Source: a virus
UHGV virus genome: UHGV-1944544
Reading direction: 5' to 3' (one strand)
DNA: 10,740 nucleotides
Shown here: positions 2,205 to 10,740 of the stretch, one piece after another
Numbering within the stretch: position 1 is the first letter of the stretch
Layout of the letters: the number at the start of each line of letters is the position of its first letter
Position numbers and translations under genes: made by a program
Notes under the pieces: model-generated
Told to the model about the DNA's origin: nothing
The model's input: only the letters and a program-made list of their open reading frames with translations
Databases searched by the model: none

Positions 2205-3203
2205 ATGCAATCACTGAATACCGTTACGGATCGCTTCTCCCTGGTAGAGAAAATCCGCAAACACACACCTCAGAACAATCGCAATTACGTTATCCAGTCG
2301 GTACGAGACACATTCAACTCGCCAGAAACAAAAGAGCGTATCGCACTGGGTGAGATGTATGGTTATTACGGTCATGGTCGCCGGGCGATGCACTATAACA
2401 AAACGAAAAGCCTGGACTTGCCGGAAGTCTCTGTTGTGATGGTAGATGGGAAGCCTGTTGTATTGGAGAACGTGCCGTCAAACAGGACTATCGACATTTC
2501 AATTGACGACAACGGCATTGTTACCCATACACAGGAAATACTGGATACGGACACCGGACGTATTGTTCAGGGTATGATTAATTCTGGCGCAGGTGGTTGG
2601 TCATGGGCTACATCTGGTCCAGATTACTCTGTATCCCTGGTAAAGTCTTTTCACGGTTTTGATTACGTAACAGTGCCTAACTATATCAGCCTCGACAAGA
2701 AAAGCCTGATGCTTGAATCAGCAGAAGAACGCGACGCGGCGATTCATGCGGCACTTATCGAACAAGGTTTTACCGATAATGCTGCTACGGATCTGGTTCA
2801 CCACTTTTCAGCAATGAAGAGTCAGCAAGCCATATTCGAATCAGCACAACGTGAAGTTCTGGAGTCGGAACTGATACATCTTGAAGTGGAAAATATGCAG
2901 CTTCGCGACAAACTACGCGACCAGGCCGCGATGATGGAAAGCCAGGGGGAGAACGCAAAGAAATCCCGCCGTATTTTGCGTGATGCTATCCAGGAAATGC
3001 CTGTTTTTATCAGCGCAGAACAGCGCCGGGCGCTCTGCCGTATGCAGTCAGAGGATGATGCACGCATTGTCGCAGCGATGCTTGAATCCCTGGGGGCTAA
3101 TGCCACTTATGGTCTGCCAATATCAGCCAATAAACAACAAGAAATACCGGTGAAAGAGAACAAGACGGTGACTCCGCTGATCTTTGTGTCTAAGAGGATG
3201 TGA
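2205..3203 (+). CDS. hypothetical protein (332 aa) with a predicted alpha-helical/coiled-coil C-terminal half
   Basis: ATG 2205 preceded by a strong GGAGGG Shine-Dalgarno (2194-2199). The C-terminal region (ESELIHLEVENMQLRDKLRDQAAMMESQ...) is heptad-like and charged. No family recognised. Confidence 0.75.
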   Translation: MQSLNTVTDRFSLVEKIRKHTPQNNRNYVIQSVRDTFNSPETKERIALGEMYGYYGHGRRAMHYNKTKSLDLPEVSVVMVDGKPVVLENVPSNRTIDISIDDNGIVTHTQEILDTDTGRIVQGMINSGAGGWSWATSGPDYSVSLVKSFHGFDYVTVPNYISLDKKSLMLESAEERDAAIHAALIEQGFTDNAATDLVHHFSAMKSQQAIFESAQREVLESELIHLEVENMQLRDKLRDQAAMMESQGENAKKSRRILRDAIQEMPVFISAEQRRALCRMQSEDDARIVAAMLESLGANATYGLPISANKQQEIPVKENKTVTPLIFVSKRM

Positions 3204-3401: not shown

Positions 3402-4361
3402 GTGAGTATTTTAAATTCAGTTTCAGTAACTTTCAACACTTCTGAGTATAAAAACAACACTGAATACCACAAAAAAATCAAAGGTCATCAGTTGAGTTTT
3501 TTTGCTCGTCATAGCGGTTTTCTTTCCCCTTCACATAGCGCCATTATTGCCGAGTTCGCCAACCTGGCAGGAGCTACCGATGAATACATGATCCGTCGCT
3601 CATATGCTGATATGTCCGAGATTACAGGACGCAGTATTTCTACTGTGCGCCGGGCATTTACCGAAGCGACGAAGTGCGGAATGCTTGTTAAGCAGCATCA
3701 GGTAGCGAATAACAATGCTCAGGTGTGTAACGTGTACCGGTTTACAACACAATTTCTCCACTTCATTCATGTAGCAATGGAGATAGGGAGTAAGCAGGGC
3801 ATCAAATTTGCCAACGCCACAAAACTGGTTAAGCAGTTGATTTCAAAGGTTCGTTATTTTTTTGAAACTGGGAACCCCCTGTTCAAATTGAACAAGTCCC
3901 CCCATGTTCAAAATGAACAGCCAATAGAAAATAAGAGTCACTCTATAGCCAAAAGAAGAGAAAGATCATGCGCGGTTCAGCCAAAGGCTTCACCAGCAGA
4001 TAGTTCTCAAGCGGATAATGGCTTGCTGGATAAAAAAACAGTAATCAGGGAAGAACATACCAACCACTGCCTGGCGGCAGCAAAAGCGAGAGCTGCAAAG
4101 CGTCGTTCAGACGAGGGGTACGCAAAACGGCAGGCTCTGTATCGTACCGCTGAAAAACTGGCAAAAAAATTTGCATGGTTACGTAGTGCTACCACAGTGA
4201 ATAAGCCCAAACGATCCAGCGCCCTGGATTTCTCTATGGATTATTCTGCTTCCCAGGGATGTGCAACCATCAATGAAGCATTTGACCTGATGAAACAGCG
4301 TGGCTATCGGTCTGAATTTGACCGGGAAGACTGGTCAATTCCGGAGGGCTTTCGGGGATGA
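3402..4361 (+). CDS. helix-turn-helix DNA-binding protein, possibly a replication initiator or regulator; N-terminus uncertain
   Basis: ORF of 319 aa from GTG 3402 with no Shine-Dalgarno. The first in-frame ATG is at 3588, where the nearest AGGAG is 15 nt upstream. HTH-like segment MSEITGRSISTVRRAFTEATKCGMLV, then a basic Lys/Arg-rich C-terminal half. The AT-rich 5' part contains direct repeats. Confidence 0.55.
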   Translation: MSILNSVSVTFNTSEYKNNTEYHKKIKGHQLSFFARHSGFLSPSHSAIIAEFANLAGATDEYMIRRSYADMSEITGRSISTVRRAFTEATKCGMLVKQHQVANNNAQVCNVYRFTTQFLHFIHVAMEIGSKQGIKFANATKLVKQLISKVRYFFETGNPLFKLNKSPHVQNEQPIENKSHSIAKRRERSCAVQPKASPADSSQADNGLLDKKTVIREEHTNHCLAAAKARAAKRRSDEGYAKRQALYRTAEKLAKKFAWLRSATTVNKPKRSSALDFSMDYSASQGCATINEAFDLMKQRGYRSEFDREDWSIPEGFRG

Positions 4362-4777: not shown

Positions 4778-5002
4778 ATGGTTAATGCCAATCCTTGCTC
4801 ACGTCCAGAATTCATCTGGCGTTTTCACTCCCTGCAAAAACACTGCGATCACTTCGCAATTGCCGCAACTGAAAAAGAAGCCCGTTCTCTGATCCCGGAT
4901 CAGTATGGCGTTCTCACTGGTCGTTTCTCTACTTCCCCACAACCAAACACCAATCCCTGGTATCGCAATATTACCAATCCCGGCATTGTGGAGGCTCACT
5001 GA
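4778..5002 (+). CDS. hypothetical small protein (74 aa), translationally coupled to the Rha gene
   Basis: ATG 4778 with GAGG 8 nt upstream. Its TGA stop overlaps the rha ATG (TGATG at 5000-5004). No family recognised. Confidence 0.45.
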   Translation: MVNANPCSRPEFIWRFHSLQKHCDHFAIAATEKEARSLIPDQYGVLTGRFSTSPQPNTNPWYRNITNPGIVEAH

Positions 5003-5943
5003 TGGATATCTGCATTCTCGAAAAGCCATCAATGACAAGCATTGAGATCGCGGAGCTGGTGGGAAAACGTCATGACAATGTGAAACGCACTATTGAGACA
5101 TTAGCCAAAGGTGGCGTTATTGTTCGTCCTCAAATTGAGGTTTTCGAAAAAATCAATAACTTAGGACTACGACGTAGTGTTGAGGCTTACGTCTTCGAAG
5201 GCGAGCAAGGCAAGCGCGATAGCATTATCGTCGTCGCGCAGCTCTCTCCCGAATTCACCGCCCGGCTGGTGGACCGCTGGCGCGAACTGGAGAATGCCCG
5301 GGTACAGTTAAAATCAAAAGCCGAAATCCTGGCCGAAATGGCGCAAATGCATCTTGAGCATGAACGCCGGATCAACGCCGTTAATGCCCAGGTAGCCGAA
5401 GTATCCGCACAAGTGTCCAAAGTCGCTGAAACCGTCGAGCAGATCAAGAAAGGCAATATTCCGGAAGGCTACATTGGCTATCGCCAGTTGGCGGCAAAAT
5501 GCGGCCTGACTGAAGCCAAATGCCGCAACCTGGTCAACGCTTACCGGATACCCACTGATACGCATGAGTTTTTGACGCCAGAGGGGGTATTGTCGCGTCG
5601 TACTATTGTGGCCTTATCTCCCTTCATGAATGCCTTTACCCTGATGATGTCGGAGGCTGAACACCGAGGAAAACGCTGGTATCATCCCAGGATGGGGCTA
5701 TTTCAGGCCATTCACCATCCTGTGCCTGAAAGTCCAAAGGCAAACCTGTCGTTGCATACCGCCAGAGAGAAGATTAAAACAGGGTATGCAACCGTATGCC
5801 GTCGAGCATCCTGGCCTGAAAGTGTCTGGGTATGGCCCGAAAGAGGCTCACGGAAAAACTGGCGCACCATTCGCGACGGCAAGATCTGTGCGATTGATTT
5901 ACAGCCAGAAGATGTAGCAGCGACCGACTGGATTGTTAGTTAA
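5002..5943 (+). CDS. Rha-family phage regulatory protein (313 aa)
   Basis: N-terminal SIEIAELVGKRHDNVKRTIE matches the Rha-domain signature (...AE.FGKRHDNV.R.I...). GGAGG Shine-Dalgarno 8 nt upstream of ATG 5002. Confidence 0.8.
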   Translation: MDICILEKPSMTSIEIAELVGKRHDNVKRTIETLAKGGVIVRPQIEVFEKINNLGLRRSVEAYVFEGEQGKRDSIIVVAQLSPEFTARLVDRWRELENARVQLKSKAEILAEMAQMHLEHERRINAVNAQVAEVSAQVSKVAETVEQIKKGNIPEGYIGYRQLAAKCGLTEAKCRNLVNAYRIPTDTHEFLTPEGVLSRRTIVALSPFMNAFTLMMSEAEHRGKRWYHPRMGLFQAIHHPVPESPKANLSLHTAREKIKTGYATVCRRASWPESVWVWPERGSRKNWRTIRDGKICAIDLQPEDVAATDWIVS

Positions 5944-8269: not shown

Positions 8270-8541
8270 TCAACTCAGTAGCTTTGTTAACTCCCTTAAT
8301 ACCAGGTAGAAGAGTAACAAAAATACTAACGCCAGTATTTGCGTGGTCAACGAGGCGTTCATAAACAGAACAATTAGCTTTAACAATTCGAGAATAACGT
8401 CCATGTCATTCACACTATTTAATTTTTAATCTACAGCCAGCAAACAATGAAGCTGCCCCCCGCATAAAGATTAATGAAAGTCACTTGTTGACAGTCAATA
8501 AATTCAGTGCGGCGAAGAAACTCTGTCTATACGGATAGTGC

Positions 8542-8579
8542 TTGCATTTTGCCCTTTCCGCGTGTAGTGTGTATACACA
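8542..8579 (+). promoter_or_regulatory. Putative higBA promoter with a 12-bp palindromic operator (TGTGTATACACA)
   Basis: Perfect palindrome at 8568-8579 overlapping a candidate -10 (TATACA, 8572-8577), with -35 TTGCCC at 8549-8554 (17-bp spacer); an alternative pairing is TTGCAT 8542-8547 with TAGTGT 8565-8570. It lies 26-37 bp upstream of the higB start. Confidence 0.4.
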
Positions 8580-8604
8580 AGTCACGCACACGGATGGAAT
8601 TATT

Positions 8605-8886
8605 TTGATTAAGTCATTTCGCCATAAGGGGCTTGAACGCTTTTTCAAGACAGGTTCAACCGCAGGCATTCAGACCAAACATGCGGTTAAGCTACGCATT
8701 CAATTGACTGCTCTTAATACAGCTAAACGCCCGGACGATATGTCTGCGCCTGGATGGGAATTACACCCACTAAAGGGGGCGGACCTTAAAGGTCACTGGG
8801 CAATATCGGTAAACGGTAACTGGCGACTTACCTTCCGATTTGAAGGAGAAGACGCAATTCTAGTTGACTATCAGGATTATCATTGA
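8605..8886 (+). CDS. higB: HigB toxin (RelE/ParE superfamily, plasmid-maintenance-killer type), about 93 aa
   Basis: From TTG 8605 the product reads (M)[13 protein letters not shown]...[41 protein letters not shown], matching the HigB signature (MIKSFxHKGL ... HPLKGD..G.W.I.V..NWR.TF.F...DA.I..Y.DYH). GGATGGA Shine-Dalgarno at 8592-8598. The track ORF opens earlier, at TTG 8542. Confidence 0.85.
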
Positions 8887-8894
8887 GGAACACT

Positions 8895-9176
8895 ATGAGT
8901 CGTATGCATAATCCCGCGCATCCAGGCGCGGTTCTTCGTGAATATTTGGGAGACATGTCAGTCACAGACGCAGCTGCTGCATTAGGCATTACTCGCACGG
9001 CACTTTCCCGAATTCTGAACGAAAAAACAGGTATTTCTGCTGATATGGCACTTCGTCTGGAGTCCGCTCTTGGAACCAGTGCCGAAATGTGGACCGGTAT
9101 GCAATCCCAGTATGAGCTTTGGGTTGCTTCGCAAACCGCTCGCCCAAACATCCGTCCATTATTTTCCCACGCATAA
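8895..9176 (+). CDS. higA: HigA antitoxin (XRE-type HTH), about 93 aa
   Basis: From ATG 8895 the product reads [18 protein letters not shown]...[37 protein letters not shown], matching the HigA family (MHNP.HPG ... S...L.GK.GIS..MALRL...GTS.E.W). GAGG Shine-Dalgarno 6 nt upstream; the start is 8 bp after the higB stop. Confidence 0.85.
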
Positions 9177-9181
9177 TTTTA

Positions 9182-9213
9182 CAGCGTCACCAGGCCAGGT
9201 GACGCTGCTTTCC
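9182..9213 (+). terminator. Candidate terminator after higA
   Basis: Perfect 9-bp stem CAGCGTCAC / GTGACGCTG with an 8-nt loop, followed by CTTTCC, a weak U-tract. Confidence 0.4.
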
Positions 9214-9268
9214 CGCATTTCACACCCTGCATACAGTTCCCCACAGGTTATGACTGTGAGGAACTGTT

Positions 9269-9598
9269 ATGAGTTACAGCAGACTCGACGATCGATGCAT
9301 TGAAGACGATGTGCTGCGCGCACTATTCCATCAGGAGATGATCAAGCGGGTATCGGAGTATCACTCCGATAATTTCCAGTACACGATAAAAATTGATGAG
9401 GTTTATCGCTCAGACCTAGCGGCCTATCGCGCCTATGGCAACGCTGATTTGCGCTGGGTATTTCGCGTGCTGGTGGGCCATGAGTCAGAAATGGAAGAAA
9501 TGCCGGTAGGGACAACGTTAACTCTTCCTGACGCAGCATGGCTAAGAAACAAGATTCGCGATTACGCTGGCTCGGCACCGGAGATAGAAAATGCCTGA
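9269..9598 (+). CDS. hypothetical protein (109 aa); C-terminal part tentatively LysM-like / phage tail-protein-X-like
   Basis: ATG 9269 with GAGGAA 5 nt upstream. The C-terminal segment (YRSDLAAYRAYGNADL...MPVGTTLTLPD) resembles the tail-protein-X pattern as recalled from memory, unverified. Its stop overlaps the start of the next gene (ATGCCTGA). Confidence 0.6.
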   Translation: MSYSRLDDRCIEDDVLRALFHQEMIKRVSEYHSDNFQYTIKIDEVYRSDLAAYRAYGNADLRWVFRVLVGHESEMEEMPVGTTLTLPDAAWLRNKIRDYAGSAPEIENA

Positions 9599-10740
9599 CT
9601 TCCAGAAAAATCAGGACGGGCGATATATCACTGACGGCCTGTCCTCTAAGGATTTCACACGCGTATTTGAACTCATCAGGAAAGAGCAAAACCGCAAACG
9701 CCGCCAGGCGCACAGGACACTCACGCCGGGCAGGCTTAGGAATAAATCAGCCGAAGACATTCTTAAGCTGGGGAAAAAGAAAGGCGGCACGTTCTTTACG
9801 CGTGACGATCTGAAAGGCTTCGAAAAGCTGCGAAGCAAAGCACGCGAAAAATATGACAGCAAGACGGCTGGCATTACATACGCACAACTGGTAGCGTCCA
9901 GCCAGGCTATCGATATTAAGCGAGCAAATAACGCCGTAGACGACGGTTCTGGTATCAAAAGAGCTACGCCCGTATCTCTTCGTCACAATGTGATTAATAT
10001 CCGCGTGGAAGCGTCCGATATATCCGTTCACCAGCACCACATTGTCCGGGTACGTTTTGAAGAATGGGATCAGATAGTCGATGACATCGCAGAAGACGAT
10101 AAATCAGCCCTGAAAGTCACAAAATCACTGTGTGCCGGGCGAGTGTCTTTCGACTGTGACTGCGGTCGCCATCAATACTGGTATCGCTACATCGCCACTG
10201 CGGGTAACTTTGCCCTGGCCCCGCCAAAAGAATACGCCTATCCAAAAGTTCGCAACCCTAAGCTGCAAGGCGTCGCCTGTAAACATGTGATCCACTCAAT
10301 GACACGACTACAGTCTGCCAGTTGGCAGATGAGTATTGCTCGCGCCCTGCAAAAAGCTGCAACGCAAGTTGCCTTTGGTGACGATCGCCGCCGCACGACA
10401 AAACACTTCACAAAAGAAGACGAGAAGGCGTTCAATCGAAACCGTAGCAGCAAAACGAATGTTGAGGCAGCTAAACGTGAATGGAAGCTCTATCAGAAAC
10501 GCCAGGCCGCTTTAAGCTCAAAACTGGCAAAGGACAACGGTAAGATCGACAAGCTGCGCGACCAACTGACCAGGGCCAGAAAGTTATCCGACGCACAGAA
10601 AAAACGGGCAGCGGCAAAAGAAGCTGCTTTGCAACGGGAGAAGCAGAAAAACAAGGAACTTCAGCAACGCCTTGCTGATCAGTTCGCACTGAAGAAGCAG
10701 GCGTTCATTGATGCGCTTGTTATGGCAGGAACACCACCAG
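9591..10740 (+). CDS. large hypothetical protein, partial (at least 383 aa, continues past the window end), with a CxC...CxH putative zinc-binding motif and a basic coiled-coil region
   Basis: Frame translated by hand from ATG 9591 to the window end with no stop codon; GGAG lies 7 nt upstream. Cys cluster FDCDCGRH...(38 aa)...CKHVIH encoded at 10155-10295. From about 10390 onward the sequence is Lys/Arg/Gln/Ala-rich and heptad-like. Absent from the supplied track because it has no in-window stop. Confidence 0.7.
   Translation, partial: MPDFQKNQDGRYITDGLSSKDFTRVFELIRKEQNRKRRQAHRTLTPGRLRNKSAEDILKLGKKKGGTFFTRDDLKGFEKLRSKAREKYDSKTAGITYAQLVASSQAIDIKRANNAVDDGSGIKRATPVSLRHNVINIRVEASDISVHQHHIVRVRFEEWDQIVDDIAEDDKSALKVTKSLCAGRVSFDCDCGRHQYWYRYIATAGNFALAPPKEYAYPKVRNPKLQGVACKHVIHSMTRLQSASWQMSIARALQKAATQVAFGDDRRRTTKHFTKEDEKAFNRNRSSKTNVEAAKREWKLYQKRQAALSSKLAKDNGKIDKLRDQLTRARKLSDAQKKRAAAKEAALQREKQKNKELQQRLADQFALKKQAFIDALVMAGTPP

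Follow-up and report, generated by a model that had tools for sequence, protein, structure and literature searches.

What are the two overlapping genes at the right-hand end of the virus genome UHGV-1944544, and what does the larger of them do? The stretch analysed here, referred to as the window, comprises 10,740 nucleotides (nt) and ends inside the larger gene. Judged by sequence comparison, the window is part of a D6/P1-type phage-plasmid, and the two open reading frames are homologues of genes 26 and 25 of phage P1, the first two genes of a conserved late morphogenesis operon, 26-25-7-24-6-5. As D6/P1-type morphogenesis genes the pair is already known and annotated. The gene 25 product, gp25, is the only product of this operon without a place in the published P1 virion structures. 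Its core is established here, by signature, conservation and predicted fold, as a domain of the SWIM type whose insert is long and conserved and whose score lies under the Pfam cut-off. The features of the pair are as follows.

9258..9263, plus strand: Shine-Dalgarno-like GAGGAA, 5 nt ahead of the ATG of the gene 26 homologue, read from the sequence
9269..9598, plus strand: gene 26 homologue, 109 amino acids (aa), putative baseplate 'plug' (open reading frame list, PHROG 1269, PDB match)
9580..9598, plus strand: 26/25 junction, with GGAG at 9580-9583, the gene 25 ATG at 9591-9593 and the gene 26 TGA at 9596-9598, read from the sequence
9591..10740, plus strand: gene 25 homologue ('tail stability'), residues 1-383 of 401, cut by the window end (open frame, PHROG 1722)
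9591..9950, plus strand: N-terminal basic helical region, residues 1-120, isoelectric point (pI) 10.2, with motifs RR..A.RTLTP and D(I/V)xRANN and an invariant G94 (alignments, AlphaFold helices, charge)
9951..10325, plus strand: predicted SWIM-type core, residues ~121-245, with three beta strands and two helices, then a strand that finishes at C189-x-C191, a conserved 38-residue insert, and C230-K-H232 starting a helix
10155..10163, plus strand: codons for C189-D190-C191 (TGT GAC TGC), first predicted zinc-ligand pair
10278..10286, plus strand: codons for C230-K231-H232 (TGT AAA CAT), second predicted zinc-ligand pair
10377..10739, plus strand: Lys/Arg/Gln/Ala-rich helical region, residues 263-383, pI 10.5 (AlphaFold helices, charge)

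From the ATG at 9591 a frame continues through 383 codons without a stop, as far as 10739. A preliminary description of the window had reported this frame as running to the window end and absent from the program-made list of open reading frames; it is real, and was left unlisted as it runs past the window end. Plasmid pEC361_3, which is 99.4% identical to the window over 9200-10740, carries an annotated copy of 1206 nt and 401 aa, so that only 18 codons lie outside the window. The protein (45.8 kDa, pI 10.1, 84 K+R against 46 D+E, net charge +38) matches PHROG 1722 ('tail protein') over residues 2-382 (E 1.2e-192), is 96% identical to D6 orf74 and aligns with P1 gp25 at 55% identity over 356 residues (BLASTP, E 3e-136). 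Scans of the same protein against Pfam, NCBIfam and PADLOC gave no matches, and Protein Data Bank (PDB) sequence searches with the full protein, a family profile (alignment A2) and a core profile (alignment A4) gave nothing significant. The large protein had been assigned to an unknown family; it is the orthologue of P1 gene 25 and D6 orf74 and is annotated 'phage tail protein'. Membership of a known phage tail family had been set beforehand as the outcome that would speak against a nucleic-acid effector, and that membership (PHROG 1722, P1 gp25) is what was found.

The window copy and P1 gp25 are alike in length (401 aa here, 404-405 aa in P1), in lying directly after gene 26, and in having a CxC...CKH core and a basic helical C-terminal region. 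They differ in setting. In the window an 8-nt overlap, ATGCCTGA at 9591-9598, joins the stop of the gene 26 homologue to the start of the gene 25 homologue, as the preliminary description had read it, whereas in P1 itself 9 nt separate the two genes. This makes the overlap a peculiarity of the D6-type lineage to which this copy belongs; the adjacency is general. In this lineage, moreover, the operon has a higBA insertion ahead of it and is interrupted 3' of gene 25; in pEC361_3 one inserted gene follows gene 25, after which come homologues of genes 7, 24 and 6.

The smaller partner is the better understood of the two. The 109-aa protein matches PHROG 1269 'baseplate wedge subunit' (E 1e-35) and the P1 chain 'Gp26' in PDB 9ay5_S / 9vzk (E 2.4e-18), with 43% identity to P1 gp26 by BLASTP. 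P1 gp26 was first related to T4 gp53 through HHpred (PMC9024508) and has since been modelled in two electron cryo-microscopy (cryo-EM) studies as a hexamer, the 'plug', that sits between hub and wedge (bioRxiv 10.1101/2025.07.21.665459; PMC12810830). Homology to these solved structures identifies the window protein as the counterpart of the hexameric LysM-like plug that joins the baseplate wedges to the hub. It is a direct homologue of the Gp26 chain and has a motif in common with T4 gp53, RPELxAYRxYG...LxWVVL; it is shorter than either (109 aa here, 125 aa in P1, 196 aa in T4). The gp26 family profile aligns with T4 gp53 over this LysM-like motif (hhalign E 2.9e-4, probability 41%, 54 columns), and Pfam Phage_gp53 matches a single gp26 relative, at E 0.1. 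The earlier guess of a LysM/tail-X-like protein was near the mark, the protein being P1 gp26/T4 gp53-like; the Pfam LysM and Phage_tail_X models did not match it, and its Pfam, NCBIfam and PADLOC scans were likewise without matches.

The central question is what kind of protein gp25 is. Homologues were collected as 299 sequences by a word-indexed search and 437 cluster representatives by an exhaustive HMMER search, and conservation was read from 127 near-full-length homologues reaching down to ~25% identity. The Cys/His cluster has the layout C189-x-C191-(38 aa)-C230-x-H232, and C189, C191, C230, K231 and H232 are invariant in 127/127 homologues, all four candidate ligand positions included. 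The spacer between the pairs is conserved just as strictly at E214, P218, N222 and G227 (127/127); K219 is nearly invariant in this set and invariant in alignments A2 and A4. The spacer segment GRHQYWYRY...E..(F/Y)PK(I/V)RNP..G is the best-conserved stretch of gp25, and across the family the spacer is 36-38 residues long.

Structure prediction is consistent with this pattern. An AlphaFold2 model of the gene 25 homologue, built from 33 sequences (mean predicted local distance difference test score, pLDDT, 83.5; predicted template modelling score, pTM, 0.75), contains three beta strands and two helices, then a further strand that ends at CxC, a helix, a long loop and a helix that begins at CKH. 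CxC at the end of a strand and CxH at the start of a helix is the arrangement of the SWIM fold. Foldseek searches of BFVD with this model returned small phage proteins, several of them named 'SWIM-type domain-containing protein' (probability 1.0, TMt up to 0.61); against the PDB the search gave nothing below E 0.2. The Pfam SWIM model (PF04434) did not match the window protein. Among 40 diverse relatives it gave weak matches to 9, the best of which (17.8 bits, E 0.0024) covers both ligand pairs; the gathering threshold of the model is 19.6 bits. A search of a 5.8-billion-protein database with the core-domain profile recovered fragments of this family alone, none with a new domain architecture.

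How far does the likeness to SWIM proteins go? The comparison set consists of PF04434, ZSWIM8 (PDB 9rwz_M) and small 'SWIM-type domain-containing' proteins of the phages Motura and BcepSauron. These have the CxC...CxH signature with CxC at a beta-strand end and CxH at a helix start, three beta strands precede the signature, and ZSWIM8 and the Motura and BcepSauron proteins are the best structural matches to gp25. The differences lie in the spacer and the surroundings. The 38-position Pfam model places its ligand pairs at about 13 and 30, so that a much shorter spacer is expected than the 36-38 residues of gp25, whose spacer is conserved more strongly than any other part; nor do the domains on either side have any relation to those found in known SWIM proteins. 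The preliminary description had seen in the CxC-(38 aa)-CxH cluster a SWIM-type finger with a long spacer and had proposed that conservation of the four Cys/His positions would be telling. Both points hold up, with invariant ligands and with fold searches that return SWIM proteins. The gp25 core would be expected to bind zinc. A SWIM-type core in gp25, like the standing of gp25 as the single member without structural assignment in a broadly conserved operon, appears not to be stated in the P1 virion papers (PMC9024508; bioRxiv 10.1101/2025.07.21.665459; PMC12810830).

A separate observation concerns the CxC...CKH region in other phages. By tblastn it gave marginal matches (E 0.05-0.3) in large Gram-positive myoviruses, namely Streptococcus phage GXN1, Bacillus phage HSE3 and Listeria phage LIS04, and one of these matches falls in a gene annotated 'tail protein'. 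The matches may be fortuitous; alternatively, further tail gene clusters may contain modules of the SWIM type.

The remainder of the protein is basic and predicted to be helical. The highly basic stretch that had been noticed after the Cys/His cluster is present: residues 263-378 contain 33 K+R in 116 residues (pI 10.5), and AlphaFold predicts three long helices in the C-terminal region (291-314, 316-331 and 334-378). The length of this region varies among homologues (alignment A2). Many distant relatives end in a short conserved motif, 'FAK..gIs...v..lak' (the last ~25 residues of alignment A2), that resembles a helix-turn-helix (HTH)/HeH element; Pfam UPF0122, a putative HTH family, matches this motif of the relatives weakly (E 0.076), and in the present copy that stretch lies outside the window.

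Does the genomic setting of the pair suggest a function? Open reading frames were called in 34 distant viral and 80 genome loci and labelled from P1 proteins or from profiles built on them; starts were taken at the first start codon, so that intergenic distances are approximate. A recurrent order emerged, in which a gene for a protein of about 500 aa precedes mat-26-25-7-24-6-5-23 (capsid)-x-22 (sheath)-21-pmgG. Gene 26 lies immediately 5' of gene 25 in 21/30 viral and 52/73 bacterial genome loci, which makes the tight coupling of the two genes, suggested earlier from the window, plausible; as in P1, the window copy has a gene 26 homologue directly 5', and this synteny is kept in distant loci. 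On the other side, gene 7 lies immediately 3' of gene 25 in 23/31 viral and 31/73 genome loci, and 15 of the 23 viral junctions are 4-nt ATGA overlaps. A further 19 genome loci have an unlabelled protein of 150-220 aa directly 3' of gene 25; as a group these proteins align with the gp7 family at hhalign E 0.005, against 0.3-0.6 for four control families. From the adjacency to gene 7 and the 25-7 overlaps it follows that gp25 is tied to the stopper gene at least as tightly as to the plug gene.

The family is widely distributed. Isolated phages that encode it are P1, P7, D6, SJ46, RCS47, JK004, Acinetobacter phage ABMM1 and Xanthomonas phage Rb1, and viral contigs or bacterial genomes place it, often on contigs of 70-95 kb, in Enterobacterales, Vibrio, Pseudoalteromonas, Halomonas, Pseudomonas, Acinetobacter/Psychrobacter/Moraxella, Burkholderiales, Desulfovibrionaceae and Desulfobacteraceae. 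Both in age and in range, the layout of the P1 morphogenesis genes far exceeds the genus Punavirus. Members of the group with the mat-26-25-7-24-6-5-23-x-22-21-pmgG order are 70-95 kb phages or phage-plasmids of Gamma- and Betaproteobacteria and of Desulfobacterota (Bilophila, Desulfovibrio, Desulfosarcina). The Rb1 homologue (8854-9933) is deposited as 'transcriptional regulator MvaT', a name that found no support in Pfam or NCBIfam searches. ABMM1 and Rb1, in which the pair lies between terminase/portal-like genes and the capsid gene, had suggested a head or packaging module; this idea was rejected, as synteny across ~100 loci identifies the cluster as 26-25-7-24-6-5 of P1, with the capsid gene next in line.

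What gp25 does has to be approached through P1. The P1 record labels genes 7 and 25 'tail stability', gene 24 'baseplate or tail stability' and genes 5 and 26 'baseplate'. The roles assigned by cryo-EM are plug for gp26, stopper for gp7, terminator for gp24, hub for gp6 and spike for gp5 (PMC12810830). By annotation gp25 is grouped with the neck proteins. Mass spectrometry of purified P1 virions recovered two gp25 peptides (8.4% coverage) and likewise two peptides of gp7 (PMC9024508), a protein since found to be structural and present in 6 copies; in the same work HHpred found no possible role for gp25 (PMC9024508).

The weak virion signal, resembling that of gp7, the 'tail stability' label shared with gene 7 and the stopper and terminator neighbours together point to a role in tail or neck completion. 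We therefore propose, with about even confidence, that gp25 acts at the completion of the proximal tail end or neck, as a minor, low-copy or transient component. In such a mechanism a zinc-stabilised SWIM core would dock onto a neck or tail partner, the candidates being the stopper gp7, the terminator gp24 and the plug gp26. For the basic helices, possible contacts are an acidic partner, the tape measure and, in the central channel, the DNA end. Without gp25, tails would be made but would be unstable or badly joined, as in the 'tail stability' phenotype noted in annotations of P1 gene 25.

Several points weigh against this proposal. Two independent cryo-EM studies of P1 lack gp25, which fits a non-structural chaperone as well as it would a minor component that escaped the reconstructions (bioRxiv 10.1101/2025.07.21.665459; PMC12810830), and the mass-spectrometry signal of gp25 is weak and was flagged as uncertain by its authors (PMC9024508). 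CRISPR interference with gene 25 lowers plating only ~10-fold (efficiency of plating 0.11), though amber mutants exist; the authors of that P1 study list gene 25 among the known essential genes missed by their screen. The 'tail stability' phenotype, which goes back to Walker and Walker (1983), is taken here from annotations, no family member reaches the Pfam SWIM gathering score (17.8 against 19.6 bits), and binding of zinc, DNA or a partner by gp25 stands at the level of prediction.

Could gp25 instead be purely an assembly factor? As a non-structural chaperone or scaffold for gp26 (and gp7) it would be produced in step with them, hold them in solution or load them onto the tail as it grows, and be released thereafter; its traces in virions would be carry-over. 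This is possible, if rather doubtful. It would account for the cryo-EM results, since gp25 is missing from the P1 tail-baseplate model (bioRxiv 10.1101/2025.07.21.665459) and is nowhere mentioned in the whole-virion study (PMC12810830), and a cofactor role was raised by Gonzales et al. (PMC9024508). The start/stop overlap with gene 26 in the window, the tight packing with genes 26 and 7 in most lineages, the pairing of a strongly basic gp25 with an acidic gp26 client, and a helical region of variable length, as is typical of scaffolds and chaperones, are all in keeping with it. However, a dedicated chaperone of gp26 should phenocopy the loss of gp26, and the 'tail stability' label of gene 25 differs from the 'baseplate' label of gene 26. 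The two gp25 peptides came from CsCl-purified virions and equal in number those of the 6-copy gp7 (PMC9024508), and the extreme conservation of the surface-like RHQYWYRY...E..FPK.RNP suggests a specific, permanent binding site.

The basic character of gp25 raises the question of whether it binds the packaged genome. In this scheme gp25 would sit on the DNA at the head-tail junction as a pilot or protector of the DNA end, be injected, and shield or hold the ends, and so be an analogue, though not a homologue, of T4 gp2 or Mu N. The high pI of 10.1 over the whole length, the SWIM finger and the HTH/HeH-like C-terminal motif of many relatives would suit such a protein, as would the low-copy virion signal (PMC9024508), invisibility to symmetric cryo-EM, and the stopper and terminator as gene neighbours. 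The order around T4 gene 2 is comparable, running 3 (terminator), 2, 4 (head closure), 53 (gp26-like), 5. The likeness to T4 gp2 is one of functional analogy only: gp2 is basic, its gene lies among terminator, head-closure, gp53-like and spike genes, and its record notes a low copy number in the virion and a requirement around head-tail joining. It has no Cys/His cluster and no detectable similarity to gp25 in sequence or fold. Homology between the two was rejected by hhalign (probability 0.15%, E 0.39) and by the BFVD matches, which include no T4 protein; nor was any T4-like or Mu-like protein found among the structural matches. The case for DNA binding is moreover one of charge only, contacts between proteins are a frequent role of SWIM domains, and literature searches, which also covered abortive transduction, gave no link between P1 gp25 and DNA ends. 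We consider a DNA-end function unlikely. A protein is reported to hold the ends of abortively transduced P1 DNA together as a protein-closed circle. If gp25 did act on DNA ends it could be that protein.

It is very improbable that gp25 is a regulator of late gene expression, at the level of transcription or translation, encoded within the morphogenesis operon. The basic, zinc-finger character of gp25 and the HTH-like motif at the C-terminus of its relatives invite the idea, as do the automatic MvaT-like annotation of the Rb1 homologue and the presence of mat ('maturation control') nearby in most lineages. The MvaT label has no backing in the profile searches, a regulator would be expected to give a pleiotropic late defect rather than a specific 'tail stability' annotation, and gp25 has been detected in purified virions (PMC9024508). 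Hardly credible is the remaining reading, in which the pair, immediately 3' of higBA and with a basic, zinc-finger-type large protein, would be a higBA-associated accessory module encoding a nucleic-acid-targeting effector, defence protein or regulator: the same pair occurs in D6 and P1, where higBA is not at this site, and in ~100 tail/neck-cluster loci without higBA, PADLOC matched neither protein, and P1 genetics defines gene 25 as a morphogenesis gene.

The proximity of higBA to the pair, on which the preliminary description had remarked, is genuine, with higB and higA directly 5'. The features concerned are these.

8489..9215, plus strand: higB/higA cassette insertion, 727 nt, defined by comparison with D6; not part of the 26/25 unit
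8605-8886, plus strand: higB, upstream of the pair
8895-9176, plus strand: higA (TIGR02607, E 2.5e-28)
9182-9207: hairpin with a 10-bp stem and no U-tract, at the right edge of the higBA insert

At the corresponding site D6 has 59 unrelated nt between identical flanks. P1 and D6 carry the same 26-25 pair without higBA at this site, and higBA is not at this site in the ~100 distant loci either. Its absence beside the same pair in P1 and D6, together with the negative PADLOC result, indicates that the link is incidental, and the idea of an effector or regulator tied to higBA falls with it.

In P1 a late promoter, LP26, lies 5' of 26-25-7-24-6-5 (P1 record). No P1-type late promoter was found directly 5' of the gene 26 homologue in window 9177-9268 or in D6 11940-12063. 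The left edge of the higBA insert abuts a late-promoter box. This site, ACAAGTGACTTTCATTAATCT at 8488..8468 on the minus strand, agrees almost perfectly with the pattern of P1 late promoters ('-22 box' plus -10 element) and is the only late-promoter-like site of such quality in the window; it faces a 47-aa hydrophobic open reading frame at 8270-8413 on the minus strand (PHROG 38362, D6 orf77 homologue). The leader CGCATTTCACACCCTGCATACAG, at window 9215-9237, is conserved with D6.

Elsewhere the window encodes a replication initiator together with homologues of the portal, Pro, Ant and Mat (PHROG 1837) proteins of P1, in agreement with its assignment to a phage-plasmid.

506-2191: portal (PHROG 1497, E 2e-225)
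2205-3203: Pro homologue (P1 head processing; PHROG 1801)
3402-4361: RepL/O-like replication initiator
5002-5943: Ant anti-repressor

This left-end layout, with portal and Pro followed by the RepL/O-like initiator and Ant, is closer to D6 than to P1. The PHROG 1801 name, 'tail fiber protein', looks wrong for the Pro homologue, whose P1 counterpart is 'head processing'. Nucleotide identity is 88% to Escherichia phage D6 and 97-99% to phage-plasmids of E. coli and E. marmotae. The region matches 116 plasmid records, of which 114 are non-mobilizable; among those listed, most are ~90-96 kb in size and their hosts are Escherichia, Salmonella and Shigella. D6 annotation describes orf75 as 'similar to P1 gene 26' and orf74 as 'similar to P1 gene 25', and RefSeq labels the same proteins, or copies 96-99% identical to them, 'hypothetical protein' (small) and 'phage tail protein' (large).

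What, then, does the locus tell us? Taken by itself the finding in the window is ordinary, a truncated copy of two annotated morphogenesis genes in a common E. coli phage-plasmid, and the result for gp25 is a useful domain annotation, not a new kind of system. The database labels 'MvaT' (Rb1 homologue) and 'tail fiber protein' (Pro homologue) are flagged as unsupported by the searches made here. The added value lies in annotation: a genetically defined gene of the model phage P1 gains an invariant SWIM-type core, and its four Cys/His positions, together with a short list of candidate partners, become testable targets for work on P1.

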